Positions 1-60,435 of a stretch of 64,000 nucleotides of DNA are shown piece after piece. Source of the DNA: Candidatus Poribacteria bacterium (GTDB lineage Bacteria; Poribacteria; WGA-4E; UBA9662). The stretch covers positions 116,980 through 180,979 of the forward strand of contig PAQF01000078.1 of NCBI GenBank assembly GCA_002709695.1. Reading direction: 5' to 3'. Below the pieces are notes generated by a model that ran no database searches, was not told the origin of the DNA, and saw only the letters and a list, made by a program, of their open reading frames with translations. The translations under genes were made by a program, and so were the position numbers. Within the stretch, counting starts at the first letter, position 1; each line of letters opens with the position of its first letter.

Positions 1-708
1 TAAATGTTTTACGGTCATGTCATCCCTTGGTCTTAGCCATCGATAGCTATAACCGTAGAAAAGAACTTTTCGAGTAATATTTGAATAGTTTGGGCTTGCA
101 GAATGCCATAGACGACGATCAAAAAAGACCGCTGTTCCGGATGGTACACAGACAGTCAGGGCATTTTCTGGATCTAACGTCTTCTCTTGTGGCATTTTCA
201 ATTTGTTAGATTGGTGACTTCCCGGTACAACAGAAAAATTCCCGCACCCTGGTTGTGAGGTATCCGTCAAGAAGAAAGCCACTTTTAAAGATACCCGAGG
301 GCGGGGGTCACCTTGTAACTCTATGTTCAGGCGCCCACTATCTTGATGCCATCCAAGGCGCTTTTTTGGGAGTTCCTCATTTGCAGATTGAGGTGGTGTA
401 ATGACCATGTGTGAATGATAAAGTTGAATATTCCATCCAAGGATTCCCCACACTTTAGGAAAAGTTTTAGGCCAATCAAGCAATTCAAGAAAAAGTTCAT
501 CTTTACCAATAAAATCGAGCATATTTACTGTTCCATGTTTGGCAATACCATTTTTCTTACGGTACTGTGGAAGAAGTCGGTCAGCTGCGGAAATTAAGTT
601 TTCAACCAACTCCGGAGGTAACGCGTTTTTAATGATAAAAAAACCATCTTGTTCAAATTGCTGGTTTTCTTTTTTTGTTAAACAATAATTTAAACATTCA
701 GCATCCAT
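1..708 (-). CDS. Phytanoyl-CoA dioxygenase (PhyH) family protein, partial (C-terminus beyond window start)
   Basis: My own minus-strand translation from ATG at 708-706 (RBS GGAGAA upstream) gives 236 aa without a stop: MDAECLNYCLTKKENQQFEQDGFFIIKNALPPELVENL...WHQDSG...VVPGSHQSN...RRLWHSASPN. The HxD ... GSH ... distal His pattern is typical of PhyH-type Fe(II)/2OG dioxygenases. It is absent from the ORF track because it has no stop in the window. Confidence 0.75.
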   Translation of the reverse strand, partial: MDAECLNYCLTKKENQQFEQDGFFIIKNALPPELVENLISAADRLLPQYRKKNGIAKHGTVNMLDFIGKDELFLELLDWPKTFPKVWGILGWNIQLYHSHMVITPPQSANEELPKKRLGWHQDSGRLNIELQGDPRPRVSLKVAFFLTDTSQPGCGNFSVVPGSHQSNKLKMPQEKTLDPENALTVCVPSGTAVFFDRRLWHSASPNYSNITRKVLFYGYSYRWLRPRDDMTVKHL

Positions 709-16867: not shown

Positions 16868-17677
16868 ATGGAAATAACTAAATCACAGTTAAATCAGTTT
16901 GACCAAGTTGGTTTTTTCAAAATGGATCGAGTGATCTCACGAAAAGGGTTCCAAGAAATTCGTGAGAGGATGGAGGATATTACTCAAGGCCGAATACAGT
17001 ATCCAGGAATGTCATTTCAATTAGATGGCAGTAGTAAAGCATACGATTCTGTTCCAAGGGGTGGAGGGTTTCAGGGGCCGTCTGATAACTATCGAAAGAT
17101 TCAAGGGTGGGAAAAAGACCCTGTGTTTCTTAAGTACATGCAACACAAAATTTTCAGAGACCTGACACAGAAATTAATAGGAGATAAGGTTTCTATCTAT
17201 CGTGCTATGTTTATGAATAAGCCCCCACAAAGTGGTACTAATCTTCCTTACCACCAAGATGGGGGCGCAGGCTGGGGATTATCAAGCTATCTTGCTAATC
17301 AATTTGTCACAGTTTGGACAGCAATTGATAATGCCTATGTAGAAAGCGGTTGTATCCAAGTGGTTCCGGGTAGCCACAAGCTTGGATTATTATCTGATCA
17401 AGGTCACACAATTACAGAGGAGCAAGTTAAAGAGTATGCTTCGGAGGAGAAATCAGCTTATCTAGAAGCCCAAATGGGAGAGATCTTTGTTCTCCATAAC
17501 TTTTTACTACATAAATCAGGAATTAATCAAACGAATAAACCGCGTCGTGGATTCAGTGTTTGCTACATGGATGGTACTATCACACGGGTCAACACTTCAG
17601 AGGACACAGGAGTAATTAATCCGAACTATGAATTTCCTATTATGTTCGGAGAAAATGCGATGAAAGCAGCAGTCTGA
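16868..17677 (+). CDS. Phytanoyl-CoA dioxygenase (PhyH) family protein
   Basis: YHQDGGAGW (HxD), VVPGSHKLG, FLLHKSG distal His. Confidence 0.75.
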   Translation: MEITKSQLNQFDQVGFFKMDRVISRKGFQEIRERMEDITQGRIQYPGMSFQLDGSSKAYDSVPRGGGFQGPSDNYRKIQGWEKDPVFLKYMQHKIFRDLTQKLIGDKVSIYRAMFMNKPPQSGTNLPYHQDGGAGWGLSSYLANQFVTVWTAIDNAYVESGCIQVVPGSHKLGLLSDQGHTITEEQVKEYASEEKSAYLEAQMGEIFVLHNFLLHKSGINQTNKPRRGFSVCYMDGTITRVNTSEDTGVINPNYEFPIMFGENAMKAAV

Positions 17678-17792
17678 CCTAGGCCAAGTCAGACTGCTTT
17701 AATAGGTTACCTATGTTTTCTTTACTTTTAGCTTATATGCCCTTTTCGAAGTTATATTTTTGGTACACTAATGTTATTTTTATGGTGATTTT

Positions 17793-18752
17793 ATGTCCAA
17801 AATACTAGTTACAGAGAATATCGTTGGCAAACAAATGGAGATATTGAAAAGGAGTTTCGATGTTAGGTTCGACCCAGAATTGTGGGAGTCCCCAGATAGA
17901 TTGAAAGAAATCATTCCTGATTTCGAAGCGCTGATTATTCGAAATCAAACTATCATTACTTCTGAACTTATCACTATCGCTAGTAATTTGAAGGTTATCG
18001 GGCGGCACGGGGTAGGAATTGATAATGTAGATCTTAATGCGGCTACCAAGGCTGGAGTTCTCGTGACCTACGCACCGGAGCAGAATGCTATCTCTGTAGC
18101 GGAATTGGTGATGGGATTGGTCCTCTGTTTGGCTAGGAAAATCCCGGCTGCAGATCGGAGTACTAGACAAGGGAACTGGGAACGGCAAAACTTTACAGGA
18201 ACTGAGATTTTTAATAAAACTATTGGAATTATTGGTCTAGGTCGGATCGGTTATCGCGTTGGTATAAGAGCACAAGCCTTCGGTATGGATATAGTCGCGC
18301 ACGATCCCTACATTAATCAAGACAGTTTAAATGTTTCTGAACTACGTGCATCTTTATTGAGTTTAGAGGATTTGTGCTGCCAATCTGATTATGTTACTTG
18401 CCACTTGCCTCTAACTGAAGAAACGAAAAAAAAATTTAATTACGAGATCTTTTGTTCTATGAAACCGACAGCTTTTTTTATCAATCTGTCTCGTGGAGGA
18501 GTTGTGGATGAAGAAGGATTGCTTCGTGCTTTGCAAAACAAACGGATTGCTGGTGCTGCACTTGATGTTCGGCAGGATGAACCACCAGGAGAAGATCTGT
18601 TTTCTGAAATGGAGAATGTTATTTTAACGCCTCACGTTGCTGGAATCACTGAAGAATCAAGAGAAAGAGTTGTTTCTTGCGTTTGTAAGGATGTGGCTGC
18701 TGTATTAAGAGGTGAAAGTCCTGTTCACGCGGTTAATTCAATAAGATTTTGA
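17793..18752 (+). CDS. D-isomer-specific 2-hydroxyacid dehydrogenase (PGDH/GHPR-like)
   Basis: GIIGLGRIGYRVG NAD-binding motif, catalytic region LTPHVAGITEES, 319 aa. Confidence 0.85.
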   Translation: MSKILVTENIVGKQMEILKRSFDVRFDPELWESPDRLKEIIPDFEALIIRNQTIITSELITIASNLKVIGRHGVGIDNVDLNAATKAGVLVTYAPEQNAISVAELVMGLVLCLARKIPAADRSTRQGNWERQNFTGTEIFNKTIGIIGLGRIGYRVGIRAQAFGMDIVAHDPYINQDSLNVSELRASLLSLEDLCCQSDYVTCHLPLTEETKKKFNYEIFCSMKPTAFFINLSRGGVVDEEGLLRALQNKRIAGAALDVRQDEPPGEDLFSEMENVILTPHVAGITEESRERVVSCVCKDVAAVLRGESPVHAVNSIRF

Positions 18753-18771
18753 GATCCAAAACTAAGGGCGA

Positions 18772-20013
18772 TTGCAGATGGATAAGAAATTGAAACAAAC
18801 ATTTACGTATGTTACTCACCTTGAATGTAGTATGGTTGGGGATAATTATGCAACCTACCAACAGCACAATTTATCCAAAGCAGGTAAACCACTACTGGTA
18901 AAGTATGATTTAAAGTCTTTGTCTAATAGTTTATCCAGAGAAGAATTGTCATATCGGCCAGAAACTTTGTGGCGTTATCGCGAATTTTTACCTATTAAGA
19001 ATCCTGAGAATATTGTCACTCTTGGTGAGAATATGACACCATTGATTCACACACCGCGCCTACAATCAGGAAAGGGTAATATCTACATCAAAGATGAAGG
19101 TCGTTTGCCAACGGGTTCATTTAAGGCACGAGGACTATGTATGGCAGTTTCAATGGCTAAGGAACTAGGCGTTACCCGGATTGCCATGCCAACAAATGGA
19201 AATGCAGGTGCTGCACTGGCTGCTTATGCGTCACGTGCAGGTATTGAAGCTTACATTTTTTGCCCTGAAGATACCCCACAGGTGAACGTTCGCGAAATCG
19301 CCGCTCAAGGAGGGAAAGTTTGGTTAGTTAATGGTCTTATTAATGATTGTGGTCGAATTGTGACCGAAGGTAAAGAAAAGATGGCTTGGTTTGATTTTTC
19401 AACACTCAAGGAACCTTATCGTATTGAAGGTAAGAAAACTATGGGATTGGAATTAGCTGACCAACTTGAATGGGTATTACCAGATACTATTTTTTACCCA
19501 ACTGGTGGTGGGACTGGGTTGATTGGTATGTGGAAGGCTTTTAATGAGATGAAAGATATCGGTTGGGTTAATGGTAAACTACCACGCATGATTGCTGTAC
19601 AAGCCACGGGGTGCGCACCGATTGTACAAGCTTATGAAGACGGGGCTGAACACGCCGAATTATGGGAGGGAGCTCATACTGTTGCTGCTGGGATTCGTGT
19701 GCCAGTCGCGATAGGAGATTTCTTGGTTTTACGTGCTATACGCGAAAGTAATGGATTTGCAACTGCTGTGGATGATGAAAAAATCTTGGAGGCGCGTAAT
19801 GAAGTTGCTCAACAGGAGGGTATTCTTCTATGTCCAGAAGGTGCTGCAACTTACGCTGCCTACAAAAAAGAGCTTAGTAGTGGTCGTATTAACCCATCGG
19901 AATCAGCCATTTTGTTTAATTGTGCAAGTGGCCTAAAATATGAGCTCCCGAAAATGTCGCGATTTCTAGATTGCACTCAGCCAGTAATAGATTATTCGAA
20001 ATTGTCAGACTAG
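18772..20013 (+). CDS. Threonine synthase-like PLP-dependent enzyme (fold type II)
   Basis: TPLIHTPRL...IYIKDEGRLPTGSFKARG (PLP Lys), GNAGAALAAYA, 413 aa. Exact reaction not assignable. Confidence 0.65.
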   Translation: MQMDKKLKQTFTYVTHLECSMVGDNYATYQQHNLSKAGKPLLVKYDLKSLSNSLSREELSYRPETLWRYREFLPIKNPENIVTLGENMTPLIHTPRLQSGKGNIYIKDEGRLPTGSFKARGLCMAVSMAKELGVTRIAMPTNGNAGAALAAYASRAGIEAYIFCPEDTPQVNVREIAAQGGKVWLVNGLINDCGRIVTEGKEKMAWFDFSTLKEPYRIEGKKTMGLELADQLEWVLPDTIFYPTGGGTGLIGMWKAFNEMKDIGWVNGKLPRMIAVQATGCAPIVQAYEDGAEHAELWEGAHTVAAGIRVPVAIGDFLVLRAIRESNGFATAVDDEKILEARNEVAQQEGILLCPEGAATYAAYKKELSSGRINPSESAILFNCASGLKYELPKMSRFLDCTQPVIDYSKLSD

Positions 20014-20328
20014 TTTGGCGTAATCTAGAGCATATTTCCGAACTCTGGTAATGACTTCCATATTTTCATTTCTAGTAGGATATCTGCTGGAGTTGCTCTA
20101 AGCGACTACATGGAGAAAAGGGTTCTCCAGATCAAAAGGTTTATATATCAAAAAGTGATCTTTTCTAAGTTAAGATCAAAAATCTAGCTTTCGGGAATGG
20201 TGGGAAACGAATTTTTTGGCAACCATTTCTACCCACATATCTTCTTCTGGTGGATATTTGGAATAAATTGAGGTCCGCAAGTATGACTCGATCCGAAAAT
20301 CGTAATTAATCTAATTGGTTTTAAGGTT

Positions 20329-21750
20329 ATGTCTAGCCAAGAAATATGTTTTATGACAGCAGTAGAAATGGTGAATTGTCTTCGTTTTGGTGATCTGTCT
20401 GCCCGCCAGATAATGGTAGCCCATTTGGACCAGATTAAACGGATTAATCCAAAGGTTAATGCTATTGTTACCTTGTGTGCGGAGGAGGCTATGAAACAAG
20501 CTGCTGTTGCTGATGAAGCGCTTGTGCATAATAGGAAGGAGGTGGGACCTCTTCATGGTTTACCAATAGCACACAAAGATTTAACATTAACTAAGGGTAT
20601 TCAAACCACGTTTGGTTCACCTGTTTTTCAGGATTTTATTCCTGATCAAGATGGGTTGATTATAGAAAGATTGAAACAAGCAGGTGCGATTACTGTTGGG
20701 AAAACTAATACCCCTGAATTTGGCGCAGGATCTCAAACTTATAATGAGGTTTTCGGAGAGACCTTAAATCCTTATGATATAAGTAAAACTTGTGGTGGTA
20801 GTAGTGGTGGTGCAGCGGTAGCTCTTGCCTGTGGAATGCAACCTATCGCTGATGGGAGTGATATGGGGGGGTCACTCCGCAATCCGGCGAGCTTCTGTAA
20901 TGTTGTAGGGTTTCGACCTTCACCAGGCAGAGTGCCGGTTTGGCCGTCTCTCACGGGATGGTTCCCGATATCTGTACAAGGTCCTATGGCACGTACAGTT
21001 GCAGATGTGAGCTTAGTGCTGAGTGCTATTGCTGGGCCTGATCCTCGTTCACCAATTTCCATCTCAGAATCCGGTGATGTTTTTAAGCAATCTTTGGATA
21101 GAGATTTTTCCGGTGTACACATTGCATGGAGTCAGGACTTAGGCGAATTTCCAGTTGATAAGAGGATTACTAAAGCGATTGAAGGACAAAAATCCGTATT
21201 TGAGTCGATAGGTTGTGTCATAATTGATGACCAACCGGACTTTACAGATGCCGACGAAATTTTTAAAATATGGCGTGCGTGGCACTTCGAACTGGCTTAT
21301 GCTGAACTATTAGAAACGCATCGAGATCAGATCAAAGACACAGTCATCTGGAATATCGAAGAGGGGCAAAAACTTAGCGGGGTAGAGATCGGTCGCGCTG
21401 AAATTAAACGAACTCAGTTATACCAGCGAATTCGTGAGTTTATGGAAAAGAGCGAATTTCTGGTTCTGCCTGTTAGTCAAGTTCCTCCTTTTGATATAAG
21501 ACAACGTTATGTTACTGAAATTAATGGTGTTGATATGGAAACCTATATTGATTGGATGAAATCCTGTTATTACATTAGTATTACTGGTCTTCCTTCTATC
21601 TCAGTGCCCTGTGGATTTACTTCTGAAGGTTTACCTGTTGGTATTCAAATCGTCGGTCGTCATCAGGACGACTTTGGTGTCCTACAGCTTGCCTATGCCT
21701 TTGAGCAATCAACAGGTTTTTGGAAACAGAAGCCTACAATTGTGGCATAA
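20329..21750 (+). CDS. Amidase (amidase-signature family)
   Basis: GGSSGGAAVALACG with upstream Lys and Ser-cis-Ser context; 473 aa. Confidence 0.85.
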   Translation: MSSQEICFMTAVEMVNCLRFGDLSARQIMVAHLDQIKRINPKVNAIVTLCAEEAMKQAAVADEALVHNRKEVGPLHGLPIAHKDLTLTKGIQTTFGSPVFQDFIPDQDGLIIERLKQAGAITVGKTNTPEFGAGSQTYNEVFGETLNPYDISKTCGGSSGGAAVALACGMQPIADGSDMGGSLRNPASFCNVVGFRPSPGRVPVWPSLTGWFPISVQGPMARTVADVSLVLSAIAGPDPRSPISISESGDVFKQSLDRDFSGVHIAWSQDLGEFPVDKRITKAIEGQKSVFESIGCVIIDDQPDFTDADEIFKIWRAWHFELAYAELLETHRDQIKDTVIWNIEEGQKLSGVEIGRAEIKRTQLYQRIREFMEKSEFLVLPVSQVPPFDIRQRYVTEINGVDMETYIDWMKSCYYISITGLPSISVPCGFTSEGLPVGIQIVGRHQDDFGVLQLAYAFEQSTGFWKQKPTIVA

Positions 21751-23120
21751 TGCTGTTGAATGCACCCAACGAGAGTTTGTGTATGCATAATGATCGCCAG
21801 GTCACTCAATCTCTGAAGACCTATGAGCTCGCAGGTAAACTAATCCCTGGTTGGACACAACTTATAAGCCGACGTGCTAGTCAGTTTGCAAACGGTGTCA
21901 GTCCGATTTATGCACAGTGTGCTAAGGGGGCACGTTTTACTGATATTGATGGGAATAGTTATATTGATTGGGTTAGTGCTGTTGGTGCAATTATTTTAGG
22001 TCATGCTGATAAAGTCGTTGATCAAGCTGTAAAGGAGCAGATCAATCGCGGAAGTTTGTATTCTTTAAATAGTCCATTGGAAGTTGAATTGGCTGAGGAA
22101 TTGGTAGATACAATCCCCAGCGCAGAAATGGTTCGATATACTAAAGGAGGTGGAGAAGCATGTGCTGTTGCTGTTCGAATCGCTCGGGGAACTTCAGGTA
22201 GAGAAAAAATCCTATTCTGTGGTTATCATGGCTGGCACGATTGGTATCAAGCAGCCAATTACTTGGTAAACCCAGAAGATGGTGAGTTTCCATTTTCGGG
22301 AATTGAACCAATTGGTGTACCTCAAGTTTTGGCGAATACGGTCATCCCTTTTGCTTACGGAAATCTGACGATGTTAGAAGATCTCCTTAAAAACAACCAG
22401 AACCAAGTTGCAGCCATTATGATGGAACCAATTAGATCTGTACTGCCAGATCCCGGATATTTAGAAGGAGTAAAAGCATTAGCACAAGAACACGATGTTA
22501 TACTGATTTTTGATGAAGTGTCTTGTGGATGGAGACTGTCAATTGGTGGTGTTCAGAAATACCTTAATGTTGTTCCTGATATGACGGTTGTTGCTAAGGC
22601 TATGTCTAATGGGTATCCTATGGGAGCCGTAGTTGGTTTACGAAATGTAATGGAGCCAGCCGATCGAATGTTTATTTCTAGTTCTTACTGGAGTGATAAT
22701 ATTGGTTTGGTTGCAGCATTAACGACAATCCGAGAGCTGAAACAGCGTGATTCTGAAACTCGATTTAAAGAAATTGGAGATAAGCTAATCAAAGGTATTA
22801 ATGAAGCGATTACTGATCTTGGCCTCTCTGGTATGTGTTCGGGGCTTTATACTAATCCCACCATTAATTTAGATTTACCTGATGATACGCTAGGATCGAA
22901 AGTTAACACGCTGTTTATTCAAGAAATGTCATCCAGAGGAGTCCTTTGCTACACGTCATTGACACCAACCTTAGCCCATACTGAGGAAGATATTAATCTT
23001 ACGATCCAAGCGATTACTGATACTCTAGTAGTGATTCAGTCTGGTTTGGAATCTGGCGATATAGATAGTCTGCTGACATGCAATATTAAGAAAGATCCTT
23101 TCCGTCGATTGGTCAGATAA
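21750..23120 (+). CDS. Class III (omega) aminotransferase
   Basis: GARFTDIDGNSYIDW, FDEVSCGWRLSIGG, AKAMSNGYP (PLP Lys). Start chosen at ATG 21750 overlapping the amidase stop (TAATG). The track start at 21720 lies inside the amidase. Confidence 0.8.
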   Translation: MLLNAPNESLCMHNDRQVTQSLKTYELAGKLIPGWTQLISRRASQFANGVSPIYAQCAKGARFTDIDGNSYIDWVSAVGAIILGHADKVVDQAVKEQINRGSLYSLNSPLEVELAEELVDTIPSAEMVRYTKGGGEACAVAVRIARGTSGREKILFCGYHGWHDWYQAANYLVNPEDGEFPFSGIEPIGVPQVLANTVIPFAYGNLTMLEDLLKNNQNQVAAIMMEPIRSVLPDPGYLEGVKALAQEHDVILIFDEVSCGWRLSIGGVQKYLNVVPDMTVVAKAMSNGYPMGAVVGLRNVMEPADRMFISSSYWSDNIGLVAALTTIRELKQRDSETRFKEIGDKLIKGINEAITDLGLSGMCSGLYTNPTINLDLPDDTLGSKVNTLFIQEMSSRGVLCYTSLTPTLAHTEEDINLTIQAITDTLVVIQSGLESGDIDSLLTCNIKKDPFRRLVR

Positions 23121-23286: not shown

Positions 23287-23679
23287 GTGGGAAAAAGTGC
23301 CAAGGAGCTTGTTGAAGAAGCTAATTCGATGCTTAACGTAATTTCGGTTGAAGAGGCTCAATCGTTGGTTGGAAATTCAGATGTCGTTTTTGTCGATGTG
23401 CGAGATCCCGATTCGGTATCAGAAACTGGTATTATTCCAGGAGGAGTTAGTGCGCCGCGCGGACTACTTGAATTTCATGCGGATCCGGAATTTGAGGCTT
23501 TCCATAAACCAGAACTTGACCCAAATAAGCATATTGTGGTAACTTGTGGATTAGGTGGTCAAGCAGCATTATCTGGCAAAGTTCTGAAGGAAATGGGTTT
23601 TGAAAACGTTTCAAATATTGATGGTGGAATGGCTGCTTGGACGGAAGCAAATGCTCCAACCGAAGATTTCGAAGAATAA
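23287..23679 (+). CDS. Rhodanese-domain sulfurtransferase
   Basis: VFVDVRDPDS...VVTCGLGGQAALSGKVLKEMGFENVSNIDGGMAAW with active-site Cys in CGLGG; GTG start. Confidence 0.8.
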   Translation: MGKSAKELVEEANSMLNVISVEEAQSLVGNSDVVFVDVRDPDSVSETGIIPGGVSAPRGLLEFHADPEFEAFHKPELDPNKHIVVTCGLGGQAALSGKVLKEMGFENVSNIDGGMAAWTEANAPTEDFEE

Positions 23680-23703: not shown

Positions 23704-23740
23704 AGCGTTGAAGTTTTTCATCTTCAACGCTATTTTTTTA
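23704..23740 (+). terminator. Rho-independent terminator after the rhodanese gene
   Basis: Perfect 10-bp stem AGCGTTGAAG / CTTCAACGCT with an 8-nt loop, followed by ATTTTTTTT. Confidence 0.7.
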
Positions 23741-53717: not shown

Positions 53718-54566
53718 ATGGTTGGTAAAATGGTAACAGGGAAGCAGTTTCGGTTAACTTCAGATGAATTGGGTCGATGGGATCGCGACGGTTATTTGGT
53801 TCGTCTTAACGTCTTCAGTATGGAAGAGAATGATGTGCTCCGTCAAGTAGCGGAAGATATTGTTGATGGTAAGCGCCCATTTCCCATTGTACACATTGAC
53901 CATAATGCATTGATTGGGGTAGGTAATGCAGAGCGAACTGGCATCTACGCTATGCACAAAATTCACCATCCAAGTAGTTACTCCACCGAATTTCTGTTTC
54001 GTACACGTGATCCTCGATTAACAGATCCATTAGTTGATCTCTTGGGGCCAGATCTTTTGGGGATTAATAACCTTTTTATCTGGAAATCGCCAGAGATAGG
54101 GTTAGGATTCCCTTGGCATCAGGATAAGTTCTACTTTCGCAGCCGGTTTCGAACGGAAACAACCGTTGGTACTTGGATGTCGATCGATGCAGCCGATCAG
54201 GAAAACGGCTGTCTCTATGTAATTCCAGGTAGCCACAAAAAGAACATTTTTCAGCATGATGATCTAGAAGGACCTCAACAGAGGGAGTTCAAATTAGCAC
54301 GCGATGTTCGCAACGAAGATGGCGTACCTGTGGAAGTTCCTTCAGGTGCTGTTATCTGGTTCCATAGTCATCTGTTACATAAGAGCATGGACAACCATAG
54401 CCAACGTTTTCGTCGTAGCTATGTAGCTCATTACCTCAGTGCACAAGCTGAATGGTCTAGTCCTGAAAATGTAGGATGTGGTCAAGCGATAATGTGGATT
54501 CGGGGGCGAACTTACCCCAATAAAGTCCATCAGGTAGAAACCGACGTTTTGCCGATTCCTAAATAA
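53718..54566 (+). CDS. Phytanoyl-CoA dioxygenase (PhyH) family protein
   Basis: PWHQDKFYF (HxD), YVIPGSHKK, HSHLLHKS. Confidence 0.75.
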   Translation: MVGKMVTGKQFRLTSDELGRWDRDGYLVRLNVFSMEENDVLRQVAEDIVDGKRPFPIVHIDHNALIGVGNAERTGIYAMHKIHHPSSYSTEFLFRTRDPRLTDPLVDLLGPDLLGINNLFIWKSPEIGLGFPWHQDKFYFRSRFRTETTVGTWMSIDAADQENGCLYVIPGSHKKNIFQHDDLEGPQQREFKLARDVRNEDGVPVEVPSGAVIWFHSHLLHKSMDNHSQRFRRSYVAHYLSAQAEWSSPENVGCGQAIMWIRGRTYPNKVHQVETDVLPIPK

Positions 54567-59496: not shown

Positions 59497-60435
59497 ATGA
59501 AAGATGCTGGTAATTACATTGTTCCTAAGCTTGCTAAAATCCCAAATTGTACTGAAGTCACGATGGCGGGTAAGAAACTGGTTTTCGGGAAAACCATCTG
59601 GCAGCTTGAAGATAGTAACCACTTATTAGGAGATATTTCCGCTCTTCGGCGGCAGATGGACTCGGCTGGTTATTTGTTACTGCGAGGGTTTTTCGATCCC
59701 GTTCTAGTGGGCAAAGCTAGATCAGAAATCTTGGATTACATGTCATCACAAAATGTCCTCAACAGAGGTCAAGAGGCTGTTACTATTACGCAGGCAACAG
59801 CCTCACCTAACCATCATAGGTTAAGATTTACACATTCAGTGATTCAACAATTATCAGGATTTCTAGAAGTAGTCAATTCGCGCCAAATTCTGTCCTTTTT
59901 TGACAGTTTTCTGGGTGGGCCATCAATGTCGTTAGATCATAAATGGTTACGGGCTACTCCGCCAGGGAAAAATACGGGTGCCCACTGCGACGTGGTCTAT
60001 ATGGGAGCAGGTACTAAAGAACTATACACGGTCTGGACTGCTTTAAATAATATATCGTTGAATATGGGGCCATTGGCTGTTTGCCTTGATTCTCACCGAC
60101 ACCAGAAGCTAAGAGAAACCTATGGTGCTAGCGATGCACATGAAGACCTATTGGAAGGATATTTCAGTCGTGATCCTTATGAGATAATAGAAAAACTCGG
60201 TTTTCGTTGGGCGTCGACACCTTTTCAGGCAGGTGATATCGTGATTTTCGGTGTGTATTTAATGCATGGTTCCCTGGACAATTTGTCGGATAAATTTCGA
60301 CTGAGTTGCGATACCCGCTATCAGTTGGTGGATGCTGATGTGGATTGGCGCCACATGGGGGAACACCCTGACCAAATCCCAAAAGCAAAAAAACGTATAA
60401 GCATCCAAGATGCTAGAGCTAATTGGGGAATATAA
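59497..60435 (+). CDS. Phytanoyl-CoA dioxygenase (PhyH) family protein
   Basis: GAHCDVVYMG (HxD), CLDSHRH, YLMHGS. An alternative start MAGKKL at ~59563 is possible. Confidence 0.7.
   Translation: MKDAGNYIVPKLAKIPNCTEVTMAGKKLVFGKTIWQLEDSNHLLGDISALRRQMDSAGYLLLRGFFDPVLVGKARSEILDYMSSQNVLNRGQEAVTITQATASPNHHRLRFTHSVIQQLSGFLEVVNSRQILSFFDSFLGGPSMSLDHKWLRATPPGKNTGAHCDVVYMGAGTKELYTVWTALNNISLNMGPLAVCLDSHRHQKLRETYGASDAHEDLLEGYFSRDPYEIIEKLGFRWASTPFQAGDIVIFGVYLMHGSLDNLSDKFRLSCDTRYQLVDADVDWRHMGEHPDQIPKAKKRISIQDARANWGI

Follow-up and report, generated by a model that had tools for sequence, protein, structure and literature searches.

Five enzyme genes lie close together on the plus strand of a 64,000-nucleotide stretch of DNA, hereafter the window, from a Candidatus Poribacteria bacterium (contig PAQF01000078.1 of assembly GCA_002709695.1, positions 116,980 to 180,979). 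They encode a PhyH-family dioxygenase, a 2-hydroxyacid dehydrogenase (2HADH), a ThrC-like pyridoxal 5'-phosphate (PLP) enzyme, an amidase and a class III aminotransferase (AT3), and they raise the question of whether such a row of genes is one pathway or several units brought together. A sequence-only reading of this DNA had favored the first answer, with a pathway that could make or break down a modified amino acid or an osmolyte by hydroxylation, 2-hydroxy/2-oxo redox chemistry, PLP-dependent beta-replacement or elimination, amide hydrolysis and transamination. Our results show, with high confidence, that the five genes belong to three independent units which came to lie side by side recently and in one Poribacteria genus only: the PhyH gene (unit 1), the 2HADH and ThrC-like genes (unit 2), and the amidase and AT3 genes (unit 3). 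Tight co-directional spacing in a metagenome-assembled genome can come from recent rearrangement, without shared function. As a five-gene pathway the finding would be ordinary, and the 2HADH-ThrC-like pair is the only part of wider interest.

The window is part of contig C78 in a 5.2-Mb metagenome-assembled genome that is 96% complete (G000). For comparison we used relatives (n = 41), the congener genomes G001 and G002 (genus g1, that of the window), and gene contexts from other genomes or metagenome contigs, which carry L numbers below. Domain labels for the five open reading frames (ORFs) come from Pfam and NCBIfam profile matches, judged against curated cutoffs. The features of the cluster are as follows.

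16868..17677, plus strand: PhyH-family Fe(II)/2-oxoglutarate dioxygenase, unit 1, 269 amino acids, HxD at residues 129-131 (PF05721, 86.8 bits)
17668..17698, plus strand: 11-bp hairpin over the PhyH stop codon, terminator-like, with a weak U-tract (RNA fold)
17793..18752, plus strand: 2HADH, unit 2a, a short D-2-hydroxyacid dehydrogenase resembling phosphoglycerate dehydrogenase (PGDH), 319 amino acids (Pfam 2-Hacid_dh and 2-Hacid_dh_C)
18778..20013, plus strand: ThrC-like PLP enzyme (PALP), unit 2b, 411 amino acids from the ATG at 18778 (PRK08197, 639 bits)
20014..20328, no strand: ThrC-amidase spacer of 315 bp, the synteny breakpoint between units 2 and 3
20329..21750, plus strand: amidase-signature amidase, unit 3a, 473 amino acids (PF01425, 336.6 bits; PRK07486, 528.7 bits)
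21783..23120, plus strand: AT3, a class III aminotransferase resembling glutamate-1-semialdehyde aminomutase, unit 3b, 445 amino acids from the ATG at 21783 (PF00202, 150.6 bits)

The anatomy described from the letters alone held up well. The five co-directional ORFs are placed as claimed, each domain label is backed by Pfam and NCBIfam, and the core catalytic motifs are intact in all five proteins. The 2HADH stop codon (18750-18752) lies a short distance before the ThrC-like ORF, which opens at TTG 18772, the TAATG at the amidase/AT3 junction is present (21748-21752), and the spacer between the ThrC-like gene and the amidase, put earlier at about 316 bp, measures 315 bp. Read from the sequence, the PhyH-2HADH gap is 115 bp and the 2HADH-ThrC-like gap 19-25 bp. 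The likely start of the ThrC-like protein is ATG 18778, which has an AAGGG site 9 nt upstream and matches the 411-amino-acid homolog P0121. Alternative AT3 starts are ATG 21750 and TTG 21720 (ORF 21720-23120), and ATG 21783 gives 445 amino acids, the length of most homologs. The hairpin over the PhyH stop codon folds at -17.8 kcal/mol (z = -3.61; 0/200 shuffles fold equally well) and was not called by the consensus terminator scan. Within the ThrC-amidase spacer (20014-20328) a promoter-like site was found at 20216-20243, and fold analysis gave no convincing terminator. An Rfam scan of the whole window returned no element, and neither long spacer holds a riboswitch or T-box.

Conservation of this order in related genomes was the check that the sequence-only reading had proposed, and the order proved to be largely absent elsewhere, since only relatives that are 84-97% identical at the amino acid level keep it. 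Mapping of the window proteins to ThrC-like loci from 14 relatives gave the full order only in the congener G001 (about 86% identity); metagenome contigs L140 and L142 also have it, and contigs L141 and L144 have it in part. It was absent from the 12 ThrC-like loci, the 16 amidase, AT3 or 2HADH loci and the 80 amidase loci in which we looked for it. In G002 (about 85% identity) the genes form two blocks on different contigs. Contig C313 has the first block, with GH95, the remains of PhyH, 2HADH and the ThrC-like gene, and contig C49 has the second, with an MDR Zn-alcohol dehydrogenase-like gene, amidase, AT3, rhodanese, nitroreductase and rpsD. Thus, the breakpoint falls exactly in the 315-bp ThrC-amidase spacer. 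The distributions of the genes among the 41 relatives are also discordant: 2HADH orthologs occur in 6 (g1 and g3), the amidase in 29 and AT3 in 22, and close PhyH orthologs and the close ThrC-like subclade occur in genus g1 only. The two short junctions flagged earlier, 18752/18772 and 21750, turn out to join the two gene pairs that are kept beyond the genus.

These observations leave the single five-gene pathway unsupported, and we consider it very improbable. The genes are co-directional with short gaps, their order is kept in G001, L140 and L142, no clear terminator stands between the ThrC-like gene and the amidase, and a transaminase acting between the 2HADH and ThrC-like reactions would make chemical sense. 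Nevertheless, the order is restricted to close kin, it is split in G002, where PhyH is a pseudogene, the distributions are discordant, and the units differ in history and in their partners elsewhere. The suggested link to ectoine or another osmolyte fares no better, because the PhyH protein scores 20.1 bits against the ectoine hydroxylase model TIGR02408, for which the cutoff is 336.5. One point weighs against three fully separate units: with no clear terminator in the spacer, transcription of unit 2 could run on into unit 3.

The PhyH gene belongs to a family whose expansion in Poribacteria has been published. At least 153 PF05721 matches were counted in G000, a lower bound for which 150 of 280 first-look candidates were scored, and 14 control genomes had none. 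With so many copies, the adjacency of one of them to 2HADH is unsurprising. No Pfam family is more abundant in Poribacteria than PhyH, which accounts for over 1.9% of genes there, and the majority of its copies are without an assigned function (Kamke et al. 2014, PMC3909097). Compared with the PhnY-like members described in the same study, the window PhyH has no PhnZ partner; its best NCBIfam match is methylphosphonate hydroxylase, at 50 bits against a cutoff of 500. The gene is also dispensable, because a congener carries it as a pseudogene, in which only residues 196-268 survive. In that congener (L023:11681-12890, minus strand, on G002:C313) a LamG-like fragment and a short N-terminal fragment of transposase type stand in place of the 5' two-thirds, and the locus looks like the scar of a mobile-element rearrangement. 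No PhyH gene was found beside the 2HADH-ThrC-like pair in the contexts examined from other phyla.

Other PhyH copies were observed as well. The window itself holds four (67-657, minus strand; 16868-17677, 53778-54416 and 59659-60300, plus strand). G001 has two copies of the window PhyH with 85-86% identity (C112:688-1464 and C182:25125-25901), one in the cluster and one on another contig. PhyH genes lie within 400 bp of 5 of the 22 2HADH-family genes in G000, where 1.3 would be expected (permutation P of about 0.008), and the PhyH neighbors concerned are not close paralogs of one another. A hydroxylase-dehydrogenase theme may recur in G000, which we regard as a lead only.

Unit 3 has different partners. 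The amidase is a member of the amidase-signature family (PRK07486, 528.7 bits against a cutoff of 465; GGSSGG at residues 156-161, HKD and GGSLR motifs), and the solved structures nearest to it (GatA, aryl acylamidase and NylA) are generic. Members of its family share 66-75% identity across Poribacteria, Chloroflexota, Verrucomicrobiota, Desulfobacterota, Planctomycetota, Actinomycetota and Binatia, which points to an unusually strong sequence constraint across phyla. We tried to name its substrate through a universal partner gene and abandoned the attempt, because across 80 amidase loci from all of these groups (L057-L136) no neighbor is conserved outside Poribacteria. AT3 is not HemL by model (TIGR00713, 250.9 bits against a cutoff of 527.3); a separate hemL-like gene (G000:C78:21818-23107) is only 31% identical to it, and the best NCBIfam match of AT3, PRK06209 at 274.7 bits, is below cutoff. 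Most AT3 homologs are 445 amino acids long and about 70% identical, including those of Caldilineaceae, other Chloroflexi and sponge-associated bins (P0045-P0120), and this equals the closeness to other Poribacteria genera. Such similarity suggests very strong constraint or exchange among co-resident lineages. A function for AT3 could not be drawn from context, since its neighbors outside Poribacteria (Amidohydro_2, MlrC-like, M19 and aldo-keto reductase genes) indicate no specific substrate.

Within Poribacteria the amidase and AT3 belong to a larger arrangement. They are adjacent in g1 (3/3) and g8 (7/7); in g7 hundreds of kilobases separate them, in g5 they are on different contigs, and in g3 and g6 the amidase occurs without AT3. 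In g8 we found a co-directional array of an M81/MlrC-like peptidase, an MDR Zn-alcohol dehydrogenase-like enzyme, the amidase, AT3, an M19 dipeptidase and an SDR enzyme (L042:6709-14139, plus strand; also L061-L079). In g7 the array is split into a block of alcohol dehydrogenase and amidase and a block of MR_MLE, AT3, SDR and Amidohydro_2 genes. Parts of it (MlrC, M19, Amidohydro_2 and AT3) are seen again in Caldilineaceae and in a symbiont of sponges, "Chloroflexi bacterium TSY". At 22 Poribacteria loci the alcohol dehydrogenase gene is the immediate upstream neighbor of the amidase, an adjacency that no locus outside the phylum shows, and orthologs of this gene share 66-78% identity. G000 lacks such an ortholog, its best match having 27-28% identity, which makes the arrangement in G000 and G001 a derived one. 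The G000/G001 lineage lost the alcohol dehydrogenase gene when unit 2 came to lie upstream of the amidase. A remnant of that gene in the 315-bp spacer was considered and rejected, as the only match (E = 0.037) lies partly within the 3' end of the ThrC-like gene. In G000, orthologs of the M19 and SDR genes are on contig C87.

A rhodanese gene and a terminator follow AT3.

23287..23679, plus strand: single-domain rhodanese (PF00581, 67 bits)
23704..23731, plus strand: canonical intrinsic terminator 3' of the rhodanese gene, 10 pairs followed by a T-run (terminator scan)

Synteny of the rhodanese gene with the amidase and AT3 is found within the genus only (G001, G002 and metagenome contigs). The terminator folds at -14.9 kcal/mol (z = -5.23) and is the probable end of an amidase-aminotransferase-rhodanese transcription unit. 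Judged by gene content and order, the amidase and AT3, with the rhodanese, are a remnant of the Poribacteria array, and this array probably catabolizes an amide- or peptide-linked amino compound.

What, then, is the pair in unit 2? The ThrC-like gene had been labeled as such, rather than as the housekeeping threonine synthase, and this distinction was borne out: a separate thrC (G000:C78:35756-36997 in this genome) is present in 41/41 relatives, nearly always as one full-length copy, and is 69-73% identical outside the genus. G000 has four ThrC-family genes besides trpB, and 22 2HADH-family matches that include a long SerA-type PGDH (contig C28); no housekeeping gene is among the five of the cluster. 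The window ThrC-like protein shares 70-76% identity with "threonine synthases" from Planctomycetota of marine origin (Gimesia, Thalassoroseus, Pirellula, Rubripirellula) and from Verrucomicrobiota (Akkermansiaceae, Opitutales, Pelagisphaera), and only 52-58% with the PRK08197-type genes found in other Poribacteria. In a quick maximum-likelihood (ML) tree, the g1 sequences nest inside the Planctomycetota/Verrucomicrobiota clade (SH-aLRT 96-97), apart from both clades that hold the other Poribacteria PRK08197-type genes. This nesting suggests horizontal acquisition. The window subclade has a PTNGNAGAA motif, has lost the N-terminal zinc-ribbon cysteines and carries a C-terminal extension. It is rare, being found in 7/201 Planctomycetota and 1/201 Verrucomicrobiota sampled.

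The 2HADH has no ACT or ASB regulatory domains and is not SerA by model: its best NCBIfam match, PGDH TIGR01327, reaches 339 bits against a cutoff of 454 and aligns at only positions 1-312 of 525, the C-terminal regulatory domains being absent. It is 49-53% identical to the partner 2HADHs of other phyla, as compared to 41% or less for its 21 paralogs in G000. In a quick tree, the g1 and g3 2HADHs are sister to the other-phyla partner clade (SH-aLRT 98), and the long SerA-type PGDH falls outside. Directly downstream of the ThrC-like gene and in the same direction, a gene for a 2HADH of 316-325 amino acids was found in 7 of 9 close contexts outside Poribacteria, from Planctomycetota and Verrucomicrobiota-type genomes (L137, L220, L238, L138, L139, L239 and L242), with spacing from a 4-bp overlap to a gap of about 55 bp; the gene order is reversed in Poribacteria. 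Adjacency in 7/9 contexts, 49-53% identity and the sister clade on the tree together make the 2HADH-ThrC-like pair an orthologous module.

Thirty-five of the 41 relatives carry a PRK08197-type gene, which we considered as an ortholog of the window ThrC-like gene and rejected, because the tree and the identities put these genes in sister clades. Those clades have other partners, and the count says nothing about the window subclade. The partner in g2 and g3 was a Gfo/Idh/MocA gene. In f2 and g8 it was a translationally coupled, single-copy argF-like ornithine transcarbamylase gene, which the PRK08197-type gene follows and, in g8, overlaps (L030:9244-11345, minus strand; L032:8829-10948 and L035:8325-10459, plus strand; and four more). 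The argF-like-partnered clade keeps a four-cysteine N-terminal zinc ribbon. A second ThrC-like/2-hydroxyacid dehydrogenase pairing, with a different dehydrogenase fold, was seen in G000 itself (G000:C10:27301-29703, minus strand; L004:298-2700). There a ThrC-family paralog of 442 amino acids lies directly upstream of a same-strand Ldh_2-family dehydrogenase, for which L-sulfolactate dehydrogenase ranks second among the NCBIfam matches (248 bits, below cutoff).

The family matches could be taken to mean that the pair consists of biosynthetic isozymes, the 2HADH being an additional short PGDH and the ThrC-like enzyme an additional threonine synthase, brought together for amino-acid biosynthesis. 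Two "threonine synthase" equivalog models speak for this and against a catabolic role, as the ThrC-like protein scores 639.1 bits against PRK08197 (cutoff 303) and, marginally, 173.6 bits against TIGR00260 (cutoff 167.1). In addition, PGDH is the top NCBIfam match of the 2HADH, the PLP lysine and the equivalent of R160 are kept, and PRK08197-type genes adjoin the single-copy argF-like gene in other Poribacteria. Nonetheless, a separate thrC in every relative and a separate long PGDH, the rarity and patchiness of the close subclade, and contexts in other phyla that are catabolic sugar, sulfite and transporter loci make this explanation quite unlikely.

Those contexts are listed here by locus.

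L239 (Opitutales), L139 and L242: SorA/SorT-like molybdoenzyme; ROK regulator; isomerase of 429-451 amino acids; ThrC-like; 2HADH; YeiH; sugar ATP-binding cassette (ABC) system
L138 (Akkermansiaceae): aldehyde dehydrogenase; TAL_FSA; ThrC-like; 2HADH
L240: aldehyde dehydrogenase; TAL_FSA; ThrC-like; without 2HADH
L137 (Gimesia): MFS; ThrC-like; 2HADH; sugar transporter; TauE
L238 (Pirellula): sugar transporter; ThrC-like; 2HADH; RidA

Further upstream in L239 lie genes for an aldehyde dehydrogenase, TAL_FSA and RidA. The sole substantial NCBIfam match of the L239 isomerase is the sulfoquinovose isomerase SftI (full-length, E = 7.5e-44), and YeiH in loci of this type is labeled "putative sulfate export transporter". 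As annotated, these neighbors are the gene set of transaldolase-type sulfoglycolysis together with sulfite oxidation and export. In those sulfosugar-type loci, no C-S-cleaving candidate other than the ThrC-like enzyme is visible.

The same contexts allow another catabolic role, in which the pair would act on a non-sulfonated sugar-acid substrate (glycerate, hydroxypyruvate and serine, or a phosphorylated hydroxy-amino acid) and the sulfite-related neighbors would be coincidental. L137 (apart from TauE), L237 and L238 agree with this, since they carry MFS or sugar transporters, DHDPS-family aldolases, and KduI-like or RidA genes without sulfite genes; RidA would be compatible with any PLP-dependent elimination, and the window genome has no sulfosugar genes. 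However, three loci place the pair between the SftI-like isomerase and the YeiH exporter, beside the SorA-like enzyme, and the pair comes directly after aldehyde dehydrogenase and TAL_FSA in two loci, with the ThrC-like gene alone doing so in a third. Together with the lack of another visible C-S-cleaving candidate in those loci, this leaves the non-sulfonated substrate unlikely, if still worth keeping in view.

We also considered a role in sulfonate metabolism. Three units plus such a role for unit 2 is the overall explanation that we prefer, with moderate confidence; the anatomy, synteny, phylogeny and gene contexts behind it were observed, and every substrate and reaction in it is inferred. 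That the pair acts on sulfonates is, taken by itself, a serious possibility that falls somewhat short of probable. In the mechanism that we propose, the pair would parallel, with sulfonates, the phosphorylated serine pathway (SerA, SerC and a PLP enzyme that uses O-phosphoserine). The 2HADH would oxidize 3-sulfolactate, the analogue of 3-phosphoglycerate, to 3-sulfopyruvate; a general aminotransferase would convert 3-sulfopyruvate to cysteate, the analogue of O-phosphoserine; and the ThrC-like enzyme would beta-eliminate sulfite from cysteate to give pyruvate and ammonia. The pair would then be an undescribed desulfonation module that leads from 3-sulfolactate, by way of sulfopyruvate and then cysteate, to pyruvate, ammonia and sulfite, a specific reading that we offer only tentatively. 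It is likewise doubtful, though conceivable within that reading, that a ThrC-fold C-S lyase serves as a non-homologous replacement for SuyAB or CuyA. Because the Poribacteria genus carries the pair without other sulfosugar genes, it would use imported C3 sulfonates, if it uses sulfonates at all. Neither Xsc above cutoff nor a CuyA-type enzyme (TIGR01275) was found in G000, G041 or G042, and none of the papers searched ties a ThrC-family enzyme to the breakdown of sulfonates.

Several observations weigh against the sulfonate role. The basis for it is gene context in other phyla, where the SftI-like, SorA-like and YeiH matches are all below curated cutoffs, and where the three loci with the SorA-like and YeiH genes (L139, L239 and L242) encode nearly identical proteins and may come from one lineage. 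Two of the nine close contexts (L237 and L240) and the whole 66-70% identity class are without 2HADH, and in other phyla the pair has no linked aminotransferase. The ThrC and 2HADH trees are quick ML searches with SH-aLRT as the sole support. In G000, a search for transaldolase, the SftI-like isomerase, YeiH and TauE found none of them, and no transporter flanks the pair. G000, G041 and G042 contain UxaA/SuyB-family (UxaA/GD_AH) dehydratase domains in long ORFs, so a SuyAB-like lyase may be encoded there. Finally, a "threonine synthase" of Bilophila, which is a different protein, had no cysteate sulfo-lyase activity (PMC11193023).

If the sulfonate module is real, several consequences would follow. 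A ThrC-fold sulfite lyase would add a new enzyme family to the known C-S cleavers, and marine Planctomycetota and Verrucomicrobiota could fully mineralize sulfoquinovose within one cell. A free-living Poribacteria genus, having acquired only the pair, could use dissolved C3 sulfonates. A systematic "threonine synthase" misannotation would also be corrected.

The proposed module can be compared with several known systems. Conversion of sulfolactate through sulfopyruvate and cysteate to pyruvate and sulfite is known with SlcD or ComC, Coa and CuyA in Roseovarius nubinhibens and Silicibacter pomeroyi (PMC13436972, PMC11193023). The module would share with this route the chemistry and the order of steps, a final step by a PLP enzyme of fold-type II (PF00291), and a tie to sulfite oxidation and export. 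In contrast, the window dehydrogenase is of the PGDH-like D-2-hydroxyacid type, not SlcD or Ldh_2-type ComC. The candidate lyase belongs to the ThrC family, not to the 1-aminocyclopropane-1-carboxylate deaminase/D-cysteine desulfhydrase family of CuyA, so that the likeness to CuyA, proposed from the genes, lies in the reaction alone. No CuyA-type subfamily model was among the best 25 of its 38 NCBIfam matches.

Threonine synthase itself (ThrC, EC 4.2.3.1; PDB 2ZSJ, 6CGQ, 1UIM and 2D1F) shares its fold with the window protein, for which the best PDB matches score 143-158 bits; the PLP lysine in PTGSFK and the R160 equivalent are kept. The window protein differs in its motifs (FKDRG to FKARG, TGNT to NGNA and GNAGN to GGGTG), in an extra N-terminal domain of about 65 amino acids that has lost its zinc-ribbon cysteines, in a subclade-specific C-terminal extension and in its catabolic contexts. 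In Thermus ThrC, we take K61, T88, N154, S155, R160 and N188 to be the PLP lysine and residues of substrate-phosphate binding. Relative to that protein, K61 and R160 are kept in the window protein, T88 is A, N154 and S155 are changed and N188 is G. The housekeeping ThrC of G000 also departs from the Thermus motifs, and thus these changes do not separate phosphate from sulfonate specificity.

A precedent for sulfonate chemistry on this fold is cysteate synthase of methanogen coenzyme M biosynthesis, a ThrC-fold enzyme that accommodates cysteate and sulfite. The window protein is not a member of that family (TIGR03844, 63.4 bits against a cutoff of 324.9), and the direction proposed for it is elimination rather than synthesis from phosphoserine.

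A further comparison concerns the transaldolase pathway of sulfoglycolysis (sulfo-TAL), which uses the SftI isomerase, the SftT transaldolase and a sulfolactaldehyde dehydrogenase (PMC12890257, PMC9594981). Pair loci of the Verrucomicrobiota type share with it an SftI-like isomerase, TAL_FSA, a GabD-like aldehyde dehydrogenase, a ROK regulator and a sugar ABC transporter, whereas the window genome is without any sulfoglycolysis genes. According to reviews, the organisms that cleave the C-S bond, with SuyAB, Xsc, CuyA or glycyl-radical enzymes, are usually not those that carry out sulfoglycolysis. Genes for sulfoglycolysis and enzymes of desulfonation are seldom inherited together, and the C3 sulfonates pass by export to secondary degraders (PMC13436972). 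The addition of the pair, a SorA-like enzyme and YeiH to sulfoglycolysis loci suggests complete mineralization in one organism.

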